Assembly: GCA_965215375.1 (NCBI GenBank)
Contig: CBDCDO010000001.1
Coordinates: forward strand, 146,736 to 210,735
Reading direction: 5' to 3'
Length of the DNA stretch: 64,000 nucleotides
Origin: Dehalococcoidia bacterium
Lineage (GTDB): Bacteria > Chloroflexota > Dehalococcoidia > Bin125
Within the stretch, counting starts at the first letter, position 1. Each line of letters opens with the position of its first letter. The notes under the pieces were generated by a model. That model was not told where the DNA came from. It did not search any database and saw nothing but the letters and a program-made list of their open reading frames with translations. The position numbers and the translations under genes were made by a program. This document shows positions 5,664-54,515 of this stretch, one piece after another.

Positions 5664-8528
5664 ATGCGCCTGCCTCGGCTGCTGCCGATCGGGCTAATCC
5701 TCGGCCTCGTCGCCTGCTTGGCGGCGGGGCTCGGTCCACTGTCGGCGGATGAGTCGACTGAGACGACTGGGCCCGTTGATCCGGCCGTCGTCACTCTGCA
5801 GCCAGGCGAAAACCTCGTCGGTTGGCTCGGCGAGCCGCTGCCGGTTGCGCAGTTGAAGCAGCGAATCTCTGCGATTGAATCGGTTTCGGCATGGGAGCCG
5901 TTAACTGGCCAGTTCTACGAGCCAGCCAGCCTATTGGCGGGTCAGGGATACATCGTCACGCTGGCCGGTACCGAGGCTGTGCAATGGCGCCGTCCAATGA
6001 TGCCGGTCAAGGGCAAAGTCACGCTACATCGAGGTCGCAATCTCGTAACGTGGTTGGGACCTGACGATTGGGCCATTGACCGTGTTGCCCTGGGCATCGG
6101 TCGCGCGTTGGTCAGAGCAGAATGGGAGGGTGGTGAGTACACACCGGCAGAAACCACGACCGCAGAGTCTCTGCCAACTTTGAAGCGAGGCGCCGCAATC
6201 TGGGTTGAAGTCTCACGCACTGTCAACTGGCTCCAGCCCGCCGGGGTGATGCCCCAGATCAAGTTCGCCGGCGCAGTGTCGTCGGAGGTACGTGCAGAGG
6301 TGCGTCGAGACTCGGTCGACGTGATGAACCACTTCGCCAATAGATTCAGTTTGCAGCCAGACGGATCGATCCTGACGGTCTACGTCGCGGCCGACGTGGA
6401 GTCCTTGGTCGAGGTGTTTGAGGCTGATGGTCTCGAGACACGAGGTGTTCATGAAACCTGGTACAAGTCAGGAGGATGGGCGAATTCGGCTGGGTACATC
6501 GTACTCAAGACGGAACAATGGAAGCCCGACTACGGAAGTAGGCGACTTTGCGAACACGGAGAGTGCGCCAAAGGTCGAGCCGTCATGGCACATGAGTATT
6601 TCCATTCCATCCAACAGCAGTTGAGCGATACAGAGGCGCCAACTTGGTTGGTTGAAGGAGGCGCGGACTGGGCCGAGGCAGGTCTGATACTTCAAGATGC
6701 AGACTCGACCTACGACAGTGAACTGGTATCGAACCGAACAACAACATATGGCGGGTATAGCTGGGCAGACGGTCCACCGCTTGACCACACCGAACGAAGG
6801 CATGATAAGCCGTGGGCCTATACTCTCGGCGCAATCGCTTCCCAGCGGTTAGCATTGCGCAGCGGCGAACAGTCGTTGGTCGAATTTTGGCGAGCGCTAC
6901 TGCCGGTGCCGTTGGGGCCGCTCGGACGCTGGAGCTCAGATCCACCCTGGCAAAGCGTCTTCTTCAATGTCTTCGACATCACGGTCGATGACTTCTATGG
7001 TGAGTTTGCTGAATGGCGCGGGGGCCTCGCGGCGAACTCAGTCAAAGGGCGCGTCATCGGACCAGACGGCGAGGGCCTGCCGTACGTTAAAGTCGTCGGT
7101 CGTAGTCAACACTTGCCTGACGAATATCACTATGACTACACCGAGACGCTTACAGACGGACATGGAAACTTTGATTTGGCAGTGAACGAACTCGGCGTGA
7201 TCCAAGTTGGCGTAGACCTCGGCGGCTGCGCGGTCTACTACTCGGACGGTGGGATAGTGAGTCTTTGGTCGGACGCTGACGAAGTGGATGCATCGACCAC
7301 GTCCTCCCAGAATCTGCGGCTGCGGTTATCCGAGCAGCACTGTGTCTGGCAGATCAGCGGACGTGTGGTTGACCGTGGAAACGTGCTGCCAGCCAACCAA
7401 CAGATCAACGTAGATACCGGTTACGCAAATGGCAACGCGCGTATCGGTAGCGACGGAACGTTTTCCATCACTGTGCCAGTATCGGGTGTGTATCTCATGC
7501 GCGTGTACATCGACGAATGCGGCTACTACTACAACGAAGCGGCGACGAGCGGAAGTCGGGACAACGCAACTGACATTGTCGTGGTTGATTCGGACGTTGA
7601 TGGAATCAACTTTGTGATCTCAGAGACGGCTTGCTCGGCGGGCATCTCAGGGAGGCTGTTGGATGCCGACGGACAGCCGATGTCAGACGTCTGGGTAAAC
7701 GTGCGCACCGAATCGAGTTGGGGACCTGGAGACTACACTGATGCTGATGGTACATTCGAGATTTCCATCGCGGATTCAGGACAATATTTTGTCCAGGCCC
7801 ATATCAACGGATGTTCGACTTACTATCGTCGCGGCAGCGCAACGCCAAACCAGAAACAGGCATCCTGGATCTCGGTCGATGATGAAGTTGTTCGGGTTGC
7901 CTACAGGCTGCCACGCGGATTGTGCTCGATCAATATCACCGGAAAAGTATTAGATGCCAACGGAGACCCAATCACGAAAGCTCAGGTGTTCGCGGAAAGC
8001 AACGATAAGCACGCTTGGGGTGATGTCATGCCCAACGGCTCCTTCTCTGTGACTGTTCCAGAGTCCGGTCGGTATCGAGTGACCGCCCGTATTGATGGTT
8101 GCGACGTTCGTTATCGGCGTGGCGGAGTGACAGGAAGGTGGGATCTGGCAACGCAAGTGCGTGTGTCCGATGAGGATGTGACCGGCCTGACGATTCAACT
8201 TGCCGAGGGTATGTGTGAACATCGCATCTCGGGCAGATTGCTGAACGCTGATGGAAGCCCGCACGTTGAACGTTGGACACACGTAAGCGGACCCAGTGGA
8301 GCTGGCGGGGCGGAGTCGAGTGCTGATGGTTCCTTCTCGATAGTTGTGACGACCAATGGAACTTACCGTTTGTCGGTAGGGACCGAGTTCGGTGATTGTC
8401 GTATTCGCTACCGTAAGTCAGGTCCGACGAAGGTTTGGGAGAGTGCGACAGGTATCACGATCTCCAACAAGGACGTGTCGGACATTGAGTTCCGATTGCC
8501 TGCCGACGAAGAGTCGTTCTGTCGGTAA
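5664..8528 (+). CDS. secreted HExxH metallopeptidase-like protein with five Cys-delimited repeat modules
   Basis: Signal peptide. HEYFH at nt 6591..6605 is followed by WLVEGGADWAE. Five ~97-aa modules (aa ~461-953) each start with C-x-x-ISG[RK] and contain an internal GC..YY motif. Starts 3 nt after the LLM stop. Confidence 0.65.
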   Translation: MRLPRLLPIGLILGLVACLAAGLGPLSADESTETTGPVDPAVVTLQPGENLVGWLGEPLPVAQLKQRISAIESVSAWEPLTGQFYEPASLLAGQGYIVTLAGTEAVQWRRPMMPVKGKVTLHRGRNLVTWLGPDDWAIDRVALGIGRALVRAEWEGGEYTPAETTTAESLPTLKRGAAIWVEVSRTVNWLQPAGVMPQIKFAGAVSSEVRAEVRRDSVDVMNHFANRFSLQPDGSILTVYVAADVESLVEVFEADGLETRGVHETWYKSGGWANSAGYIVLKTEQWKPDYGSRRLCEHGECAKGRAVMAHEYFHSIQQQLSDTEAPTWLVEGGADWAEAGLILQDADSTYDSELVSNRTTTYGGYSWADGPPLDHTERRHDKPWAYTLGAIASQRLALRSGEQSLVEFWRALLPVPLGPLGRWSSDPPWQSVFFNVFDITVDDFYGEFAEWRGGLAANSVKGRVIGPDGEGLPYVKVVGRSQHLPDEYHYDYTETLTDGHGNFDLAVNELGVIQVGVDLGGCAVYYSDGGIVSLWSDADEVDASTTSSQNLRLRLSEQHCVWQISGRVVDRGNVLPANQQINVDTGYANGNARIGSDGTFSITVPVSGVYLMRVYIDECGYYYNEAATSGSRDNATDIVVVDSDVDGINFVISETACSAGISGRLLDADGQPMSDVWVNVRTESSWGPGDYTDADGTFEISIADSGQYFVQAHINGCSTYYRRGSATPNQKQASWISVDDEVVRVAYRLPRGLCSINITGKVLDANGDPITKAQVFAESNDKHAWGDVMPNGSFSVTVPESGRYRVTARIDGCDVRYRRGGVTGRWDLATQVRVSDEDVTGLTIQLAEGMCEHRISGRLLNADGSPHVERWTHVSGPSGAGGAESSADGSFSIVVTTNGTYRLSVGTEFGDCRIRYRKSGPTKVWESATGITISNKDVSDIEFRLPADEESFCR

Positions 8529-48419: not shown

Positions 48420-49298
48420 TCAGCCCGAAACACCGGCGTCTTCTTCGGCCGAGAGCAGGGTGGCCAAGACGGACTTCGTGTCGTGTCCGCGATTCTTGGC
48501 GCGGTTGAGCATATCGCTGGCGGCCGACGCGAGCGGCGACGGAATGCCCTGCTCGAGGGCGACCTGTACGGCCAAAGAGACATCCTTGGCAGCCCACTTG
48601 AGGTAGAAGGGGGGATCGTCGAAGTCGCGTTGGAGGAGGGTCGGCATGTTGCGGACGTAGTTCTGGGCGGAGGCGACGCTCATCACTTCGTAAGCGCGCT
48701 CGGGATCGAGGCCCGAGGCTTCAGCGATCACCGTGGCCTCGATCAGAACCTGTGAGGAGGTGATCCCGACCATATTGTTGATGATCTTGGTCAGCGCGCC
48801 CATGCCCAGCTCGCCCATGTGAAAGACGTTGCTGCCGATACATTCCAGGACCGGCTTGTACTTCTCGAAGGCTGCTTCGTCGCCGCCGACCATGACGGCA
48901 AGCGTCGCGTCGATGGCACCCTGGACACCGTTTGAGACTGGTGAGTCGAGGAATGTCACGCCATGTTCGGCCGCGCGCTCGGCGAGGATCTTCACGGTCG
49001 TGGGAAGGTTGGTGGAGAGGTCGAAGCAGACGAGCCCGGGCTCGGCGCCCTCGAGGATGCCGCTCGCGCCGCGCAGCACGGCCGTGACTTCAGGCGGTCC
49101 GGGGAGAGACGTGAGGACGACCTCCGACTGAGCGGCGACCTCGGCAGGAGTATCCGCCCAGATGGCACCGAGCTCGATCAGGTTGGCAGCGTGTTCTTCG
49201 ACGAGGTCGTTCACGACGACTCGGTGCCCGCCCTTGATCACGTTTGCGCACATCGGATTGCCGATGTTTCCTACTCCGATGAATCCAACGTCTGACAT
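48420..49298 (-). CDS. NAD(P)-dependent beta-hydroxyacid dehydrogenase (3-hydroxyisobutyrate dehydrogenase family)
   Basis: GFIGVGNIGNPM Rossmann motif and overall family pattern. Confidence 0.85.
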   Translation of the reverse strand: MSDVGFIGVGNIGNPMCANVIKGGHRVVVNDLVEEHAANLIELGAIWADTPAEVAAQSEVVLTSLPGPPEVTAVLRGASGILEGAEPGLVCFDLSTNLPTTVKILAERAAEHGVTFLDSPVSNGVQGAIDATLAVMVGGDEAAFEKYKPVLECIGSNVFHMGELGMGALTKIINNMVGITSSQVLIEATVIAEASGLDPERAYEVMSVASAQNYVRNMPTLLQRDFDDPPFYLKWAAKDVSLAVQVALEQGIPSPLASAASDMLNRAKNRGHDTKSVLATLLSAEEDAGVSG

Positions 49299-49337: not shown

Positions 49338-49778
49338 TTATCGCTCGTCGATCAAAGGATCAGCGAAATGTCGATTGCGATAGTGGCGATCATCGGGCAT
49401 GGGCAAGTCCGAGGGAAGCGTTCGATCCGCCTCATCGAGGAGTCGGATCAGCTCGGTGATTGCCTCAAGCCGCAGCTCTAGGTCGTCGAGCTGAAGTCGA
49501 TCCTCGTAGAAGTTCTGGTGTGTCTCGTTGGCAACCGCATACAACACCGCGATTGTCGGATTCTGGGCCTGTCTGGACAAATGTCTGATGATCGAGTAGC
49601 CGTCGGTGTGGCTCGTGTTCGGCCAGCCGCGAGCGGCGGCGATTGTCTTGCCTTGGTGAGCTGCGGCGCCCCAGATTTTCTCCGATGCCTGGATACGGTC
49701 GCCTTGGGCGAGCATCTCTGCGGCATGATCGAGGAGTCGCTGACTATGGACTGCATGGGTTTCGATTGGTGTGGTCAT
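49338..49778 (-). CDS. PaREP1/HEPN-like small helical protein, array copy 1 (most downstream)
   Basis: 146-147 aa. SEKIWGAAAHQ, RGWPNTSH (R-x6-H), THQNFYED and the PMPDDRHYRNRH tail. The ATG at 49778 shares its A with the stop of copy 2. Confidence 0.7.
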   Translation of the reverse strand: MTTPIETHAVHSQRLLDHAAEMLAQGDRIQASEKIWGAAAHQGKTIAAARGWPNTSHTDGYSIIRHLSRQAQNPTIAVLYAVANETHQNFYEDRLQLDDLELRLEAITELIRLLDEADRTLPSDLPMPDDRHYRNRHFADPLIDER

Positions 49779-50206
49779 CAAACAGCCTCACCTGCGTGTC
49801 GGCGGCGATAGTGACGATCGTCGGGCATGGGTAAGTCCGAGGGGAGGGCGCGGTCAGCCTCGTCGAGGAGTCGGATCAGCTCGGTGATTCGTTCGAGGCG
49901 AGCTTCAAGCTCCTCGATCTGCAGGCGATCTTCGTAAGAGTTCTGATGTGTGTCGCTTGCGACGGCGTAGAGGTCCGCGATCAGCCGAGTGCCGGTCTGT
50001 CTAGACAGGTAGCCAACAATCGAGAATCCATCGGCGTGGCTGGCATTGGGCCAGCCGCGGGAGGCGGCGATTGCTTTGACCTGGTGAGCGGCTGCGCCCC
50101 AGATTTTCTCCGATGCCTGAATGCGGTCGCCTTGGGCGAGCATCTCTGCGGCATGATCGAGCAATCGCTGTCTGTGGACCGCATGGGTCTCGATTGGTGC
50201 GGTCAT
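49778..50206 (-). CDS. PaREP1/HEPN-like small helical protein, array copy 2
   Basis: Same motifs (RGWPNASH, THQNSYED). TGATG junctions on both sides. Confidence 0.7.
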   Translation of the reverse strand: MTAPIETHAVHRQRLLDHAAEMLAQGDRIQASEKIWGAAAHQVKAIAASRGWPNASHADGFSIVGYLSRQTGTRLIADLYAVASDTHQNSYEDRLQIEELEARLERITELIRLLDEADRALPSDLPMPDDRHYRRRHAGEAV

Positions 50207-50634
50207 CAAACAGCCTCACCTGCGTGTCGGCGGCGATAGTGACGATCGTCGGGCATGGGTAAGTCCGAGGGGAGGGCGCGGTCGGCCTCGTCCAAGAGCG
50301 CGATGAGTTGGGTGATTGCCTCGAATCGTTCCTGCAGATCATCGAGCAGAAGGCGGTCCTCGTAGAAGTTCTGGTGAGTCTCATTGGCGATGGCATAGAG
50401 CTCCCAGATGCGAGCGTTGCCGGTAAGCCTCCGAATGTACCTCACGATCGAGTAGCCGTCAGTGTGGCTGGTATTGGGCCAGCCGCGAGCGGCGGCGATC
50501 GCTTTGACTTGGTGAGCGGCCGCACCCCAGATTTTCTCGGATGCTTGGATGCGGTCGCCTTGGGCGAGCATCTCTGCGGCGTGATCGAGTAGTCGCTGGC
50601 TGTGGACCGCATGGGTCTCGATTGGTGTGGTCAT
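50206..50634 (-). CDS. PaREP1/HEPN-like small helical protein, array copy 3
   Basis: Same motifs. TGATG junctions on both sides. Confidence 0.7.
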   Translation of the reverse strand: MTTPIETHAVHSQRLLDHAAEMLAQGDRIQASEKIWGAAAHQVKAIAAARGWPNTSHTDGYSIVRYIRRLTGNARIWELYAIANETHQNFYEDRLLLDDLQERFEAITQLIALLDEADRALPSDLPMPDDRHYRRRHAGEAV

Positions 50635-51062
50635 CAATCAATCTCACTTGCGTGTCGGCGACGGTAGTGGCGATCGTCGGGCATCGGCAGATCCTTCGGC
50701 AGTGCCCGATCTGCAGCATCTAGGAGCTCGATCAGCTCAGTGATGGCTTCGAGACGCGTTTCTAGCATGTCGAGAGTGAGTTGATCCTCGTAGAAGTTCT
50801 GGTGAGTCTCGTTCGCCAATCCGAAGAGTATGTCGATATCTCGGTTCCCGATGTGTCTTGTAATGTGATGCACGATCGAGTAGCCGTCAGTGTGGCTCGT
50901 GTTGGGCCAACCGCGGGAGGTGGCGATTGCCTTGACCTGGTGAGCGGCCGCACCCCAGATTTTCTCCGATGCCTGGATACGGTCGCCTTGGGCGAGCATC
51001 TCTGCGGCGTGATCGAGTAATCGCTGACTATGGACCGCATGGGTCTCGATTGGTGTGGTCAT
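50634..51062 (-). CDS. PaREP1/HEPN-like small helical protein, array copy 4
   Basis: Same motifs. TGATG junctions on both sides. Confidence 0.7.
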   Translation of the reverse strand: MTTPIETHAVHSQRLLDHAAEMLAQGDRIQASEKIWGAAAHQVKAIATSRGWPNTSHTDGYSIVHHITRHIGNRDIDILFGLANETHQNFYEDQLTLDMLETRLEAITELIELLDAADRALPKDLPMPDDRHYRRRHASEID

Positions 51063-51490
51063 CAATCAATCTCACTTGCGTGTCGGCGGCGGTAGTGGCG
51101 ATCGTCGGGCATAGACAAGTCCGAGGGAAGCGTTCGATCTGCCTCGTCGAGGAGACGGATCAGCTCGGTGATTGCGGCAAGCCGATCCTGCAGTATGTCG
51201 ATGCTCAATCGGTCTTCGTAGAAGTTCTGATGTGTGTCGCTGGCCAGTCCGAATAAGTCGCCAACTTGTCGATTTCCAATATGGCGCGATATGTGCTGGA
51301 CGATTGAGAAGCCGTCGGTGTGGCTCGTGTTGGGCCAACCGCGAGCGGCGGCGATCGCTTTGACTTGGTGAGCGGCTGCGCCCCAGATTTTCTCCGATGC
51401 CTGGATACGGTCGCCTTGGGCGAGCATCTCTGCGGCATGATCGAGTAGTCGCTGGCTGTGGACCGCGTGGGTCTCGATTGGTGTGGTCAT
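51062..51490 (-). CDS. PaREP1/HEPN-like small helical protein, array copy 5 (first in transcription order)
   Basis: Same motifs. A GAGG lies about 10 nt upstream of the start. Confidence 0.7.
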   Translation of the reverse strand: MTTPIETHAVHSQRLLDHAAEMLAQGDRIQASEKIWGAAAHQVKAIAAARGWPNTSHTDGFSIVQHISRHIGNRQVGDLFGLASDTHQNFYEDRLSIDILQDRLAAITELIRLLDEADRTLPSDLSMPDDRHYRRRHASEID

Positions 51491-51576
51491 CAATCAGCCT
51501 CATTCGACTCGAGCGGTCTGAAACCTACGATAGGCGATATCAGAGATCGCTCGGATGCAGGACTATCCTCTCTTTC

Positions 51577-52776
51577 GTGACATCTGAACATGAAGAGTCC
51601 CAGTCTGGCGCCCTGAGCGGCTTGCGCGTGATTTCGTTGTCGGAGACATCGTCCGGCGCCTATTGCGGTCGATTGTTGGCCGGACTCGGTGCTTCGGTGA
51701 CGATGGTGGAGTCCGCCGATGGCTCTCCGTTGAGGCGCAGAGGGCCATTTCGTGATGACGTTCCGGACGTCGAGGGCGGCGCGACGCATTTGCATCTCGA
51801 TCGTGGCAAACGCTCGATCAGGCTGAATCTGGCCACCGTCGCTGGGCGACGACTGCTCGATGCGCTGTTGGCTGAGGTTGATGTGCTGATCGTCGATGTG
51901 GATCGTCGACGCTGGAGTGAGGTCGGGCTAGATGCGGAGGTGATTCGTCAACGACATCCGAGCCTGTTGTTCTGCGCGATCACTCCGTATGGAATGTCGG
52001 GTCCGAAATCGGACTGGCTCGGATCGGAGCTGACGCTCTATGCCGCTGGCGGCTACCTGCGAATCGGTGGAGAGCCCGACCGAGAGCCAGTCAAGGCCTG
52101 GGGCGAGCAGGGACACTTGCAGGCAGGTCTCCATGCAGCATTGGGGATTGTCTCGGCGTACTTCGCCGGCGATGGCCAGCAGGTGGACGCTGCCGTCTTT
52201 GAGGCGTTGGCGTTCCTGCTGGGTGGCGGCTACCAGCATGCGTGGTTCTCCGATACAGAGCCCGTGCGCAACGGCGCTCGACTTGTGGGCTTTGGTCCTG
52301 GTCACTTGTATCCCTCGACGATTCGTCCATGTCTCGATGGCTGGGTGCATGCGCACTGCAACAATCGATATCCCGAGGCGATGGCGGTGTTGTTCGAGCA
52401 GCCGCGGTTAGCCGCGCCAGATCTGTTGTCCACGCTGATGGGACACGCCGATGAAGTCGATGAATTGATGGCTCCTGTGCTCTCAGCGACACCTCGGCGT
52501 GAGGTGGTCAAGCGCGCACAGGAGCTGCGGATTCCGTTCACCGAGGTGCTCGCGCCATCGGAGGTGATGGCGGACGCGGATGGACACCATGCCTCGCGCG
52601 ACTTCTGGCAGCGCACGCCGCATCCACGCGGAGGGATGTACCAAGCGCCAGGACCGGCGGTCCGCTTTGGCTCGACCGCGTGGACGGACGACTCGGCTCC
52701 AACGTTAGGTCAGGACAACGAACGACTCGGCACGCGTGAAGAATTGGTCCGCTGGAGGCGCGCCGGTGTTGCCTGA
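51577..52776 (+). CDS. CaiB/BaiF-family CoA-transferase
   Basis: LSGLRVISLSETSSGAYCGRLLAGLGASV N-terminal motif. The start is uncertain (GTG 51577 is the first plausible in-frame start outside the divergent array). Confidence 0.8.
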   Translation: MTSEHEESQSGALSGLRVISLSETSSGAYCGRLLAGLGASVTMVESADGSPLRRRGPFRDDVPDVEGGATHLHLDRGKRSIRLNLATVAGRRLLDALLAEVDVLIVDVDRRRWSEVGLDAEVIRQRHPSLLFCAITPYGMSGPKSDWLGSELTLYAAGGYLRIGGEPDREPVKAWGEQGHLQAGLHAALGIVSAYFAGDGQQVDAAVFEALAFLLGGGYQHAWFSDTEPVRNGARLVGFGPGHLYPSTIRPCLDGWVHAHCNNRYPEAMAVLFEQPRLAAPDLLSTLMGHADEVDELMAPVLSATPRREVVKRAQELRIPFTEVLAPSEVMADADGHHASRDFWQRTPHPRGGMYQAPGPAVRFGSTAWTDDSAPTLGQDNERLGTREELVRWRRAGVA

Positions 52777-54052
52777 GCCCAACCTCACTGAGTATCAGGA
52801 TTCGCCCCGACGGCCGCTGTCGGGAGTGCGTGTGTTGGACCTCACCACGGCAGTTGCCGGGCCGGTCGCGGCGCTGTTGCTCGGAGCGCTCGGCGCGGAG
52901 GTGTTGCGAATCGAGACCCCCTGGGCGCGACCCAGGCATCCGGCGTCGGCGCTTCCCAATCAGGGCGTTGGCCCTGATGAGCCTTGGAATCGGGAAGCGC
53001 GATTGAACGAGTTGGCCAATAGCAAGCGGTCGGTCGCGCTCAATCTCACCACTGAAGCGGGCCGAGATGTGTTCCTCGACCTGGTCGAGCGCTCTGACGT
53101 TGTGCTCGAGAACTTCTCACCGCGGGTGATGGGAAACTTCAATCTCGAGTGGGATGTCCTGCATCGCCGCAATCCAGAGATCATCTACGTCGCGATGCCT
53201 GCGTTCGGCAAGTCGGGTCCGTGGCGCGATCGGATCTCCTACGGGCCAGGCATCGATGCGATGAGCGGGCTGTCGTGGTTGACGGGCTATGCCGATGGCT
53301 CGCCGCTCAAACCTGGCAACTTCTATTGCGACCAGAACGCTGGGTTGCACGCCGCGTTGGCGACAATCGCTGCGCTCGTCGCTCGCAATCGCGTCGGCGG
53401 CCAGAGCGTCGAGCTGGCCATGCTGGAAGGTGAGCTTCAGCTCATCGGCGACGCGATGGTAGGCCAACAGTTGTCCGGTCGTGAGCCGACACGAATCGGC
53501 AATGAGCACTCCTCGGCCGCCCCGCATGGTGTCTATCCCGCAACCCCGATGCTCGGCGATCCCGATTCCTGGATTGCGATCGCGTGTCGGAACGATCAGG
53601 AGTGGGCCGGGCTGCTCAGTGTTTGGGGCGAGCAGTCGGTCGCTCAGGATCGGCGATTCGCCACAGGACTGCGACGCTGGCGACATCGAGCAGAGCTCGA
53701 TGAGCGGATGCAGGATTGGACATCGGGTTGCGATCCCGTGGACCTTGCCGAGCGACTGCAGGCCGCTGGGGTGCCGGCGTCGCCCGTGATGGGCGCCCGC
53801 TCGCTCTTGCGAGACGAGCAGGTATTGTCGCGGCAGTCGGTCGGTGGGCTGATGCATCCACAGGTTGGCTTGTCGCCGGCACCGCAAGCGGCATTCCGCC
53901 TGTCCGACACGCCGGCGCCGCCGAAGAATGCTGCGCCGTTGTTCGGCGTTGATACGGTGCCCGTAATGGGTGAGATATTGGGATACTCCGAGGAACGCAT
54001 TACCGAGATACTGGAATCGGGCGCGGCCAGTGATTCTCTACGCGAGCGCTGA
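52736..54052 (+). CDS. CaiB/BaiF-family CoA-transferase (second copy)
   Basis: LSGVRVLDLTTAVAGPVAALLLGALGAEV. The start is uncertain because it overlaps the previous gene by about 40 nt. Confidence 0.8.
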   Translation: MKNWSAGGAPVLPEPNLTEYQDSPRRPLSGVRVLDLTTAVAGPVAALLLGALGAEVLRIETPWARPRHPASALPNQGVGPDEPWNREARLNELANSKRSVALNLTTEAGRDVFLDLVERSDVVLENFSPRVMGNFNLEWDVLHRRNPEIIYVAMPAFGKSGPWRDRISYGPGIDAMSGLSWLTGYADGSPLKPGNFYCDQNAGLHAALATIAALVARNRVGGQSVELAMLEGELQLIGDAMVGQQLSGREPTRIGNEHSSAAPHGVYPATPMLGDPDSWIAIACRNDQEWAGLLSVWGEQSVAQDRRFATGLRRWRHRAELDERMQDWTSGCDPVDLAERLQAAGVPASPVMGARSLLRDEQVLSRQSVGGLMHPQVGLSPAPQAAFRLSDTPAPPKNAAPLFGVDTVPVMGEILGYSEERITEILESGAASDSLRER

Positions 54053-54109
54053 TGCGTCGCGCCAGTGCATCTACTGATGCGTCGCGCCAGTGCATCTACT
54101 GATGCGTCG
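54050..54109. repeat. 25-bp tandem direct repeat, 2.4 copies
   Basis: The unit tgatgcgtcgcgccagtgcatctac occurs at 54050..54074 and 54075..54099, with a partial copy at 54100..54109. The first unit contains the CoA-transferase stop codon. Confidence 0.85.
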
Positions 54110-54128
54110 ACCGAAAAGTGAGGTGAGC

Positions 54129-54515
54129 ATGCCGATCCGAAAACCATGGAATCAGCCGACTGCGGAATCAATCCGGGCAATACCGGCTGTCGTCGGTGTG
54201 TACGAAATCGCCGATGCCGACGGCACACTGTTGTACATCGGTCAGGCGGGCGGTCGTGAGCCGTTCGGTCTGCGGACTCGGATTGGGCGGCATTTTGGCT
54301 TCGATCCGTCGGGCGACGATCCCAACCCCGTGCTGCGGGAGCAGGCGGCGCAGTATCGCTGGGAGGCGAACCAGCAGTACACGACCAAGCGATTGGAAAT
54401 GCTCATGCAGTACCAGCGCGACGAACGAGTCGAGTGGCCGCCCGCGCATCCCGCAGGAGACTGGACAGATCGGCCGCAACTCGGTCGGCTGCGTCGTTCT
54501 CAGCAAGTCGGCTAA
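54129..54515 (+). CDS. small GIY-YIG-like domain protein
   Basis: GVYEIADADGTLLYIGQAG...GLRTRIGRH matches the GIY-(x9-11)-YIG...R..H layout, with downstream Glu residues. The ATG at 54129 follows gaggtgag. Confidence 0.45.
   Translation: MPIRKPWNQPTAESIRAIPAVVGVYEIADADGTLLYIGQAGGREPFGLRTRIGRHFGFDPSGDDPNPVLREQAAQYRWEANQQYTTKRLEMLMQYQRDERVEWPPAHPAGDWTDRPQLGRLRRSQQVG

Follow-up and report, generated by a model that had tools for sequence, protein, structure and literature searches.

A tandem array of five PaREP1-type genes in a Dehalococcoidia bacterium: homogenized junctions and old, type-specific cores

How can five neighboring genes be nearly identical over their first third and yet differ strongly a few codons further on? 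This question is raised by a gene array in a 64,000-nucleotide (nt) stretch of DNA from a Dehalococcoidia bacterium (contig CBDCDO010000001.1, positions 146,736 to 210,735), which was analyzed as a whole and is called the window below. The array occupies positions 49338-51490 of the minus strand, where the open reading frame (ORF) list holds five head-to-tail genes and Tandem Repeats Finder (TRF) reports a repeat with a period of 428 nt, 5.0 copies, and 79% matches. The products of all five genes match Pfam PF05942 (PaREP1/PaREP8) with E values of 1e-14 to 7e-19 and scores of 54 to 68 bits, against a gathering cutoff of 24.4. A preliminary description had attributed the pattern to gene conversion combined with diversifying selection on a recognition surface. 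We favor another explanation, to which we give a probability of about 0.6: purifying selection, gene conversion confined to blocks at the gene junctions, and old type-specific cores together produce the mosaic, in a set of stand-alone HEPN paralogs at a conserved locus.

A mosaic of conserved ends and variable patches

The genes were named A to E in the order of transcription, gene A being copy 5 of the preliminary description and gene E its copy 1. The listed ORFs start at TTG, with a likely ATG one codon downstream. We took this ATG as the start because GAGG or GAGA sits 7 to 8 nt upstream of it, and residues are numbered accordingly, residue n of the preliminary description being residue n-1 here. 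Genes A (51062-51490), B (50634-51062), C (50206-50634), and D (49778-50206) code for 142 amino acids each and gene E (49338-49778) for 146, all on the minus strand. Gene E, the last in the array, has a longer tail of its own and no paralog downstream. The five proteins align without gaps across 142 codons.

Residues 1 to 42 are identical in four of the five proteins, and the fifth, encoded by gene D, differs by T3A and S12R. Two variable patches follow, at codons 64-85 and 96-106. They read QHISRHIGNRQVGDLFGL and SIDILQDRLAA in A, HHITRHIGNRDIDILFGL and TLDMLETRLEA in B, RYIRRLTGNARIWELYAI and LLDDLQERFEA in C, GYLSRQTGTRLIADLYAV and QIEELEARLER in D, and RHLSRQAQNPTIAVLYAV and QLDDLELRLEA in E. 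The tails group as C with D (AGEAV) and A with B (ASEID), that of E being the longer one. At the DNA level, genes B and C are 94.4% identical over codons 1-42, 47% over codons 64-82 (exactly nt 50389-50445 in gene C), and 50% over codons 95-106. In the patches 28 of 33 columns are variable, compared with 17 of the other 101 (Fisher P = 2e-12). A scan statistic found 19 variable columns in one 22-codon segment and only 2 in one 42-codon segment, and neither extreme was reached in 20,000 permutations (P < 5e-5). The near-identical 5' thirds, the two patches, their peptides, the tails, and the coordinates in the preliminary description were thus all exact, and the clustering goes beyond chance.

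The two patches and the residues between them form what we call the type-specific core, codons 64-106, which was delimited from nucleotide identity between paralogs, the proportion of synonymous differences (pS), and strain comparisons. It lies at 51173-51301 in gene A, with equivalents at 50745-50873 (B), 50317-50445 (C), 49889-50017 (D), and 49461-49589 (E) on the same strand.

Homogenized ends and old cores

Several lines of evidence indicate that the gene ends have been exchanged between copies. At codons whose amino acid is invariant, silent third-position divergence was 0.22 in codons 1-63 versus 0.44 in the remaining codons (P = 0.0005). When polymorphic sites were permuted in the manner of GENECONV, significant shared 3' tracts emerged between genes C and D (nt 354-426, global P < 1e-4) and between genes A and B (nt 403-426, P = 0.005). 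Over codons 1-60, nucleotide identity was 0.89-0.94 to array-mates versus 0.77-0.82 to the best copy in another genome, whereas over codons 61-110 it was 0.63-0.68 within the array, no higher than the 0.61-0.68 found between genomes. The same mosaic was present in four other arrays (L007, L014, L015, and L018). In the last three of these, the N-terminal region carried no type signal and the cores separated the types sharply.

We compared six syntenic arrays from strains with average flank differences of 1.3 to 1.9%, both among themselves and relative to the window. Variable sites among the six reached a density of 0.112 within the 5' third, 0.074 over codons 107-134, and 0.18 for the tail, versus 0.045 and 0.012 in the two patches and 0.031-0.042 in the flanks, so that the gene ends vary 2 to 5 times more than the flanks. 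The number of synonymous substitutions per synonymous site (dS) between strains followed the same pattern, with 0.205 in the 5' third versus 0.040 and 0.010 in the patches. Most of the between-strain variable sites of the 5' third (75 of 106) carry the base of a paralog. The L002 array has four copies, the last of which is a D-to-E chimera with a clean switch between nt 317 and 345; judging by its sequence, this gene is the product of an unequal crossover. The L005 array has no type A. The five core types recur in these strains, and four of the five complete strain arrays, like the window, hold all five in the same order.

The halved silent divergence of the 5' third, the shared tracts, the paralog alleles, and the chimera support homogenization of the ends by non-allelic gene conversion between copies, and to this extent the preliminary description was right. 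We regard the homogenized unit as a block of approximately 300 nt that straddles each gene junction. The A/B block, at 50874-51172 on the minus strand, runs from codon 107 of gene A through the last one, codon 142, and the TGATG overlap to codon 63 of gene B; its equivalents lie at 50446-50744 (B/C), 50018-50316 (C/D), and 49590-49888 (D/E), and the 5' third of gene A is at 51302-51490. Non-allelic conversion and unequal crossing-over between neighbors would thus be ongoing and confined to these blocks, each of which would carry the 3' quarter of one copy, the ribosome-binding site embedded in it, and the 5' third of the next copy. The near-identity of the 5' thirds should not be taken for very recent homogenization: their silent pS is still 0.33, and the identity of the proteins results mainly from strong purifying selection, with a ratio of nonsynonymous to synonymous substitution rates (dN/dS) of about 0.1.

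The cores have a different history. Nucleotide identity between paralogs is 0.49-0.67 there, and synonymous sites are saturated, with a pS of 0.67-0.77, including in codons 86-95, where the amino acids are conserved. This saturation argues for old paralogs with homogenized ends and not for young duplicates with fast-evolving cores. A recent duplication followed by accelerated evolution or programmed hypermutation of the core, by a diversity-generating retroelement (DGR) or something similar, might have been suggested by the roughly 90% DNA identity of the 5' thirds taken alone. Positive selection does not cause synonymous saturation, however, and the cores are stable between strains. We found no array-like DNA elsewhere in the window that could serve as a DGR template, in a survey in which the reverse transcriptase search was not exhaustive, and patch substitutions fell on adenine in 24% of cases versus 25% in the base composition, which leaves no adenine bias. 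We therefore rejected both the DGR and the recent-duplication scenarios, which have very little chance of being correct; the preliminary description had already argued that this is not a DGR.

Two observations concern copy number. The L004 contig (ENA ERZ25070900 contig_3, 808 kb) ends inside a PaREP1 array after two copies, the locus ending at 6449. The array repeat thus acts as an assembly break point, and copy numbers in short-read metagenome-assembled genomes (MAGs) may be underestimated. In addition, L014, L015, and L018 (Dehalococcoidia MAG chromosomes OZ253504.1, OZ250140.1, and OZ244584.1) represent a second lineage, with three to four copies separated by spacers of approximately 38 nt, without overlaps. 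The order of core types differs by genome in this lineage, and copies 3 and 4 of L014 are recent duplicates with 96% identical cores, which points to birth-and-death turnover.

Selection on the patches and the exposed face

The ratio of nonsynonymous to synonymous differences (pN/pS) between paralogs was about 0.5 in the patches and 0.1 elsewhere. In 30 disjoint pairs with unsaturated synonymous sites, dN/dS amounted to 0.27-0.40 for the patches, compared with 0.07-0.13 for the 5' third and 0.02-0.14 for codons 86-95. The patch values are thus 3- to 4-fold above those of the 5' third, yet below 1. We also performed a parsimony count resembling single-likelihood ancestor counting (SLAC) on 77 sequences, an approach of low power, and no codon displayed a significant nonsynonymous excess; the highest values, about 1.3, were not significant, and many patch sites were at 0.5-0.9. 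Cores from different strains are 98.5% identical if they belong to one type and 60% identical if they do not. Only about five or six clusters at 90% identity were found near this species, and on these sequences the patch repertoire is closed.

These data bear on the proposal of the preliminary description that diversifying selection, of the kind known from immunity and antigen families, acts on a recognition surface made of the patches, while conversion homogenizes the rest of the gene. The raised patch dN/dS fits this proposal, as does the pace of PaREP1 evolution: amino acid identity to the window is 62-72% for PaREP1, whereas the products of neighboring genes are better conserved (dehydrogenase, 73-90%; DsbD, 77-91%; acyl-CoA dehydrogenase, 92-98%), and the surplus divergence falls almost entirely within the core. 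Moreover, many conflict systems with lineage-specific expansions belong to the HEPN superfamily (PMC3710099), and PaREP1 itself has expanded in Dehalococcoidia, where a genome carries several loci. Against it, dN/dS in the unsaturated pairs and the site-by-site count give no sign of positive selection, the repertoire is closed, and the array belongs to a syntenic locus in a metabolic context, without a defense island or a PADLOC match. Furthermore, no part of the gene varies less between strains than the patches do. What had been called hypervariability corresponds to five patch types that are stable in six strains, where variable sites are no denser in them than in the flanks. We consider diversifying selection improbable. 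The uneven divergence along the gene and the raised patch dN/dS relative to the 5' third were borne out, and positive selection was not.

A neutral origin is unlikely, if a little less so. The patches would then be the least constrained exposed helix faces of old paralogs, refractory to conversion once diverged, and the copies would be redundant. The same positions are the most variable ones family-wide, many patch sites have a dN/dS of 0.7-1.3, copy number ranges from one to five between species and from four to five between strains, and the L014, L015, and L018 arrays display changes in type order and recent duplicates. Nevertheless, the cores of each type vary no more from strain to strain than the flanks do, their dN/dS of about 0.3 is not neutral, and the five types keep their order in the window and in four of the five complete strain arrays. 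Redundant copies should also decay, and no pseudogenes were seen.

We investigated where the patches fall on the protein. An AlphaFold2 (AF2) model built with 108 homologs reached a predicted local distance difference test (pLDDT) score of 92.5, with helices at residues 8-24, 28-50, 57-71/74-87 (kinked), and 97-120, followed by an ordered tail. Foldseek searches of the PDB placed 2hsb, 2q00, 1wol, 1ufb, and 1o3u at the top, with template modeling (TM) scores of 0.66-0.78 for 2hsb and 2q00, whereas a single-copy sequence search of the PDB gave no match. A profile search weakly matched 2q00/2jpu (E = 0.007), aligning H87, in the motif T-H-Q-N-F-Y-E-D, with the conserved His. No meaningful match was obtained in scans against NCBIfam, PADLOC, and PHROGs, and a fold search against viral structures returned nothing significant. 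The modeled fold and the family matches identify all five proteins as PaREP1-type stand-alone HEPN four-helix bundles.

H87 is present in 75 of 77 family sequences. Positions 80-82 are F/Y, G/A, and V/L/I, not Arg, and the Arg of the Rx4-6H motif is absent. The preliminary description had given weight to an R-x6-H motif; this motif, R50-x6-H57, is nearly invariant in the bacterial clade and sits in the loop between helices 2 and 3. It is not the canonical HEPN motif, the family His being H87, between the patches, and bundle topology would place the R50-x6-H57 loop at the pole opposite H87. Patch 1 corresponds to helix 3 from residue 64 to just before H87 and patch 2 to the start of helix 4, so that the core spans helix 3 from residue 64, the H87 loop, and the beginning of helix 4. 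A clade-specific, nearly invariant C-terminal tail, LPxDLPMPDDRHYRxRH, lies outside the Pfam model.

In helices 3b and 4 the moment of variability points 156 to 178 degrees away from the hydrophobic moment, and the entropy at polar positions is 1.9-2.1 bits, versus 0.6-0.8 bits for helices 1 and 2. In the family as a whole, it is again these positions that vary most. Moments and entropies together indicate two polar surfaces, a conserved one formed by helices 1 and 2, the loops, and the tail, and a variable one beside H87. The moment analysis thus agrees with the earlier view of an exposed surface formed by the variable residues; that it serves in recognition is plausible. A suspected compensatory link of residue 99 with patch 1 (F80/G81 versus Y80/A81) was dropped, as it was not supported in the wider family, where mutual information with average product correction (MI-APC) gave weak signals.

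HEPN domains generally act as dimers. The wider family includes at least 10 natural fusions of two PaREP1 domains, and given the dimer rule, these fusions suggest that neighboring copies may pair. The fusions (P0116, P0138, P0140, and at least seven others) are single chains from several subclades, and the P0116 linker resembles the tail plus N terminus of neighboring array genes. Longer family members revealed no informative fusion partner, only doubled PaREP1/HEPN domains.

In the explanation that we favor, strong purifying selection would act on helices 1 and 2, the loops, and the clade-specific tail PMPDDRHYRxRH, while the old core of codons 64-106 would not be entered by conversion and would be stably inherited under relaxed but real purifying selection. 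The five isoforms would have a conserved functional face in common, and each would have a specificity face of its own, which would set its binding targets or determine which copies dimerize. A bolder extension of this model, to which we give little credence, is that the array is a combinatorial set of HEPN subunits. Coupled translation would yield homo- and heterodimers, up to 15 species, for which the faces of helices 3b and 4 would serve as a pairing or target code for RNA or protein, maintained by selection against conversion of the core. A second His/Arg-rich pole (H8, H11, R50, H57, and the RHYRxRH tail) would then form a new ligand-binding or catalytic site that archaeal PaREP1 proteins lack.

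Several points weigh against the explanation that we favor. To our knowledge, no PaREP1 protein has a known biochemical function. The position of the patches relative to the dimer interface or H87 derives from helix topology only, and in an AF2 model of the P0116 fusion each domain is confidently predicted, whereas their relative orientation is not (predicted TM score [pTM], 0.53). Synonymous sites are few in the short core, about 25 per pair, and a patch dN/dS of 0.3-0.4 also fits a surface that is simply less constrained. Core divergence alone would block homology-dependent conversion, and protection of the core need not involve selection. Lastly, a survey of neighboring ORFs at 80 loci revealed only conserved metabolic synteny, with no minimal nucleotidyltransferase (MNT) gene, restriction endonuclease gene, or recurrent partner gene, and there is neither a defense-island context nor a PADLOC match.

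The array proteins resemble the PaREP1/PaREP8 clade of HEPN-T, described by Anantharaman et al. (2013; PMC3710099) and Makarova et al. (2009; PMC2701414), in their significant Pfam match, four-helix HEPN bundle, His at the canonical position, missing Rx4-6H Arg, and tandem, multicopy expansions without an MNT operon partner. The Parep1/8 branch of HEPN-T was reported to retain the His and to have lost the Arg, its genes often being in tandem (PMC3710099), and 2q00/2jpu is a Sulfolobus solfataricus structure. Besides tandem repeats, a location beside MNT plus restriction endonuclease genes is characteristic of the family; of these two arrangements, the array has the first. Unlike the proteins first described, those of the array come from a bacterial, not crenarchaeal, host, add the LPxDLPMPDDRHYRxRH tail and R50-x6-H57 in the helix 2-3 loop, and are encoded without a ribbon-helix-helix (RHH) fusion, with TGATG overlaps, at a syntenic position among metabolic genes rather than in variable regions. 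With the HEPN-MNT RNase toxins they share the fold (7ae6 and 7bxo, TM scores of 0.45-0.56 by Foldseek) and an expected dimeric action, but they lack both Rx4-6H at the helix 3-4 junction, where only H87 is present, and an adjacent MNT gene.

In segmental concerted evolution of tandem families, the ends are homogenized while specificity-bearing cores persist as types. The array follows this pattern, its ends being homogenized by non-allelic conversion and unequal crossover and its cores escaping. Unlike antigenic or arms-race families, it has cores that are stable between strains, without a sign of turnover. It is a tidy, if conventional, example of segmental concerted evolution and reveals no new diversification mechanism; that process is well known, and tandem PaREP1 genes have already been described in archaea. 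Its value lies elsewhere. PaREP1 is a sizeable HEPN family without known function, to which the array offers a tractable entry point. It amounts to a natural experiment, with five presumably coexpressed isoforms that have an invariant face and one differing exposed face beside a conserved His, stable across strains. Species with one, three, four, or five copies allow comparison, and core-swap and pairing experiments are easy to design.

Gene junctions and conserved neighborhood

The first gene junction, read from the sequence at 51060-51078 of the minus strand, has the form TGATG, in which the TGA stop codon shares one base with the next ATG. The Shine-Dalgarno-like GAGG or GAGA of the next gene is embedded in the final tail codons (GTGAGA or GTGAGG) of the preceding one. 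The same layout is found at 50632-50650, 50204-50222, and 49776-49794. These stop/start overlaps suggest translational coupling of the five paralogs. Downstream, 39 nt after gene E, lies a gene for a beta-hydroxyacid dehydrogenase-like protein (NAD_binding_2/NAD_binding_11; 48420-49298, minus strand), which may be cotranscribed with the array. This neighborhood is conserved. Four terminator-like matches were found, a number not above chance expectation, and none is located between the array and this gene.

The region upstream of the array (51491-51576) separates it from a divergent family III CoA-transferase gene, and its extent depends on the true start of that gene. In L001, a distance of 212 nt separates the array from the CoA-transferase homolog as called. 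The start in the window is uncertain (51397-51703, plus strand): the 357-amino-acid call in related contigs would drop the conserved N-terminal motif LSGLRVISL, whereas an in-frame GTG near 51577 would retain it, which would leave an intergenic region of approximately 86 nt. No sigma-70-like consensus was found upstream of the array, and promoter, Rfam, and tRNA scans of the window or locus gave no match.

The close relatives of the array proteins all come from Dehalococcoidia/Chloroflexota MAGs, the archaeal matches being distant (30-44% identity), and NCBI already names Chloroflexota members "PaREP1 family protein." A profile search retrieved about 1,400 PaREP1 clusters at 50% identity. Tandem arrays of two to five copies occur here and in other Dehalococcoidia. 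Approximately 29 loci of related species share the same gene order, namely, family III CoA-transferases, one to five PaREP1 genes, the beta-hydroxyacid dehydrogenase-like gene, DsbD, and a cation antiporter; the PaREP1 genes evolve faster than their neighbors.

Many genomes carry additional, dispersed PaREP1 copies with unrelated neighbors. Next to one of them, in L023, a HicB-like antitoxin gene (6427-6813, minus strand; PF15919, E = 7e-15) lies convergent to the PaREP1 copy at a distance of 13 nt. In L025, an ORF of equal length occupies the corresponding place (6427-6813, minus strand), the PF15919 scan having covered L023 only.

On the CoA-transferase side of the window, a perfect 25-nt direct repeat, CTGATGCGTCGCGCCAGTGCATCTA, occurs at 54049-54109 (2.4 copies, TRF score of 122, 100% matches). 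Its start coincides with the stop codon of the second CoA-transferase gene, and it extends toward a small DUF7508 gene. The latter (54090-54515, plus strand; 128 to 141 amino acids), located between the CoA-transferase and acyl-CoA dehydrogenase genes, has homologs recorded as PF24348 (DUF7508), and it is kept in 16 related loci.

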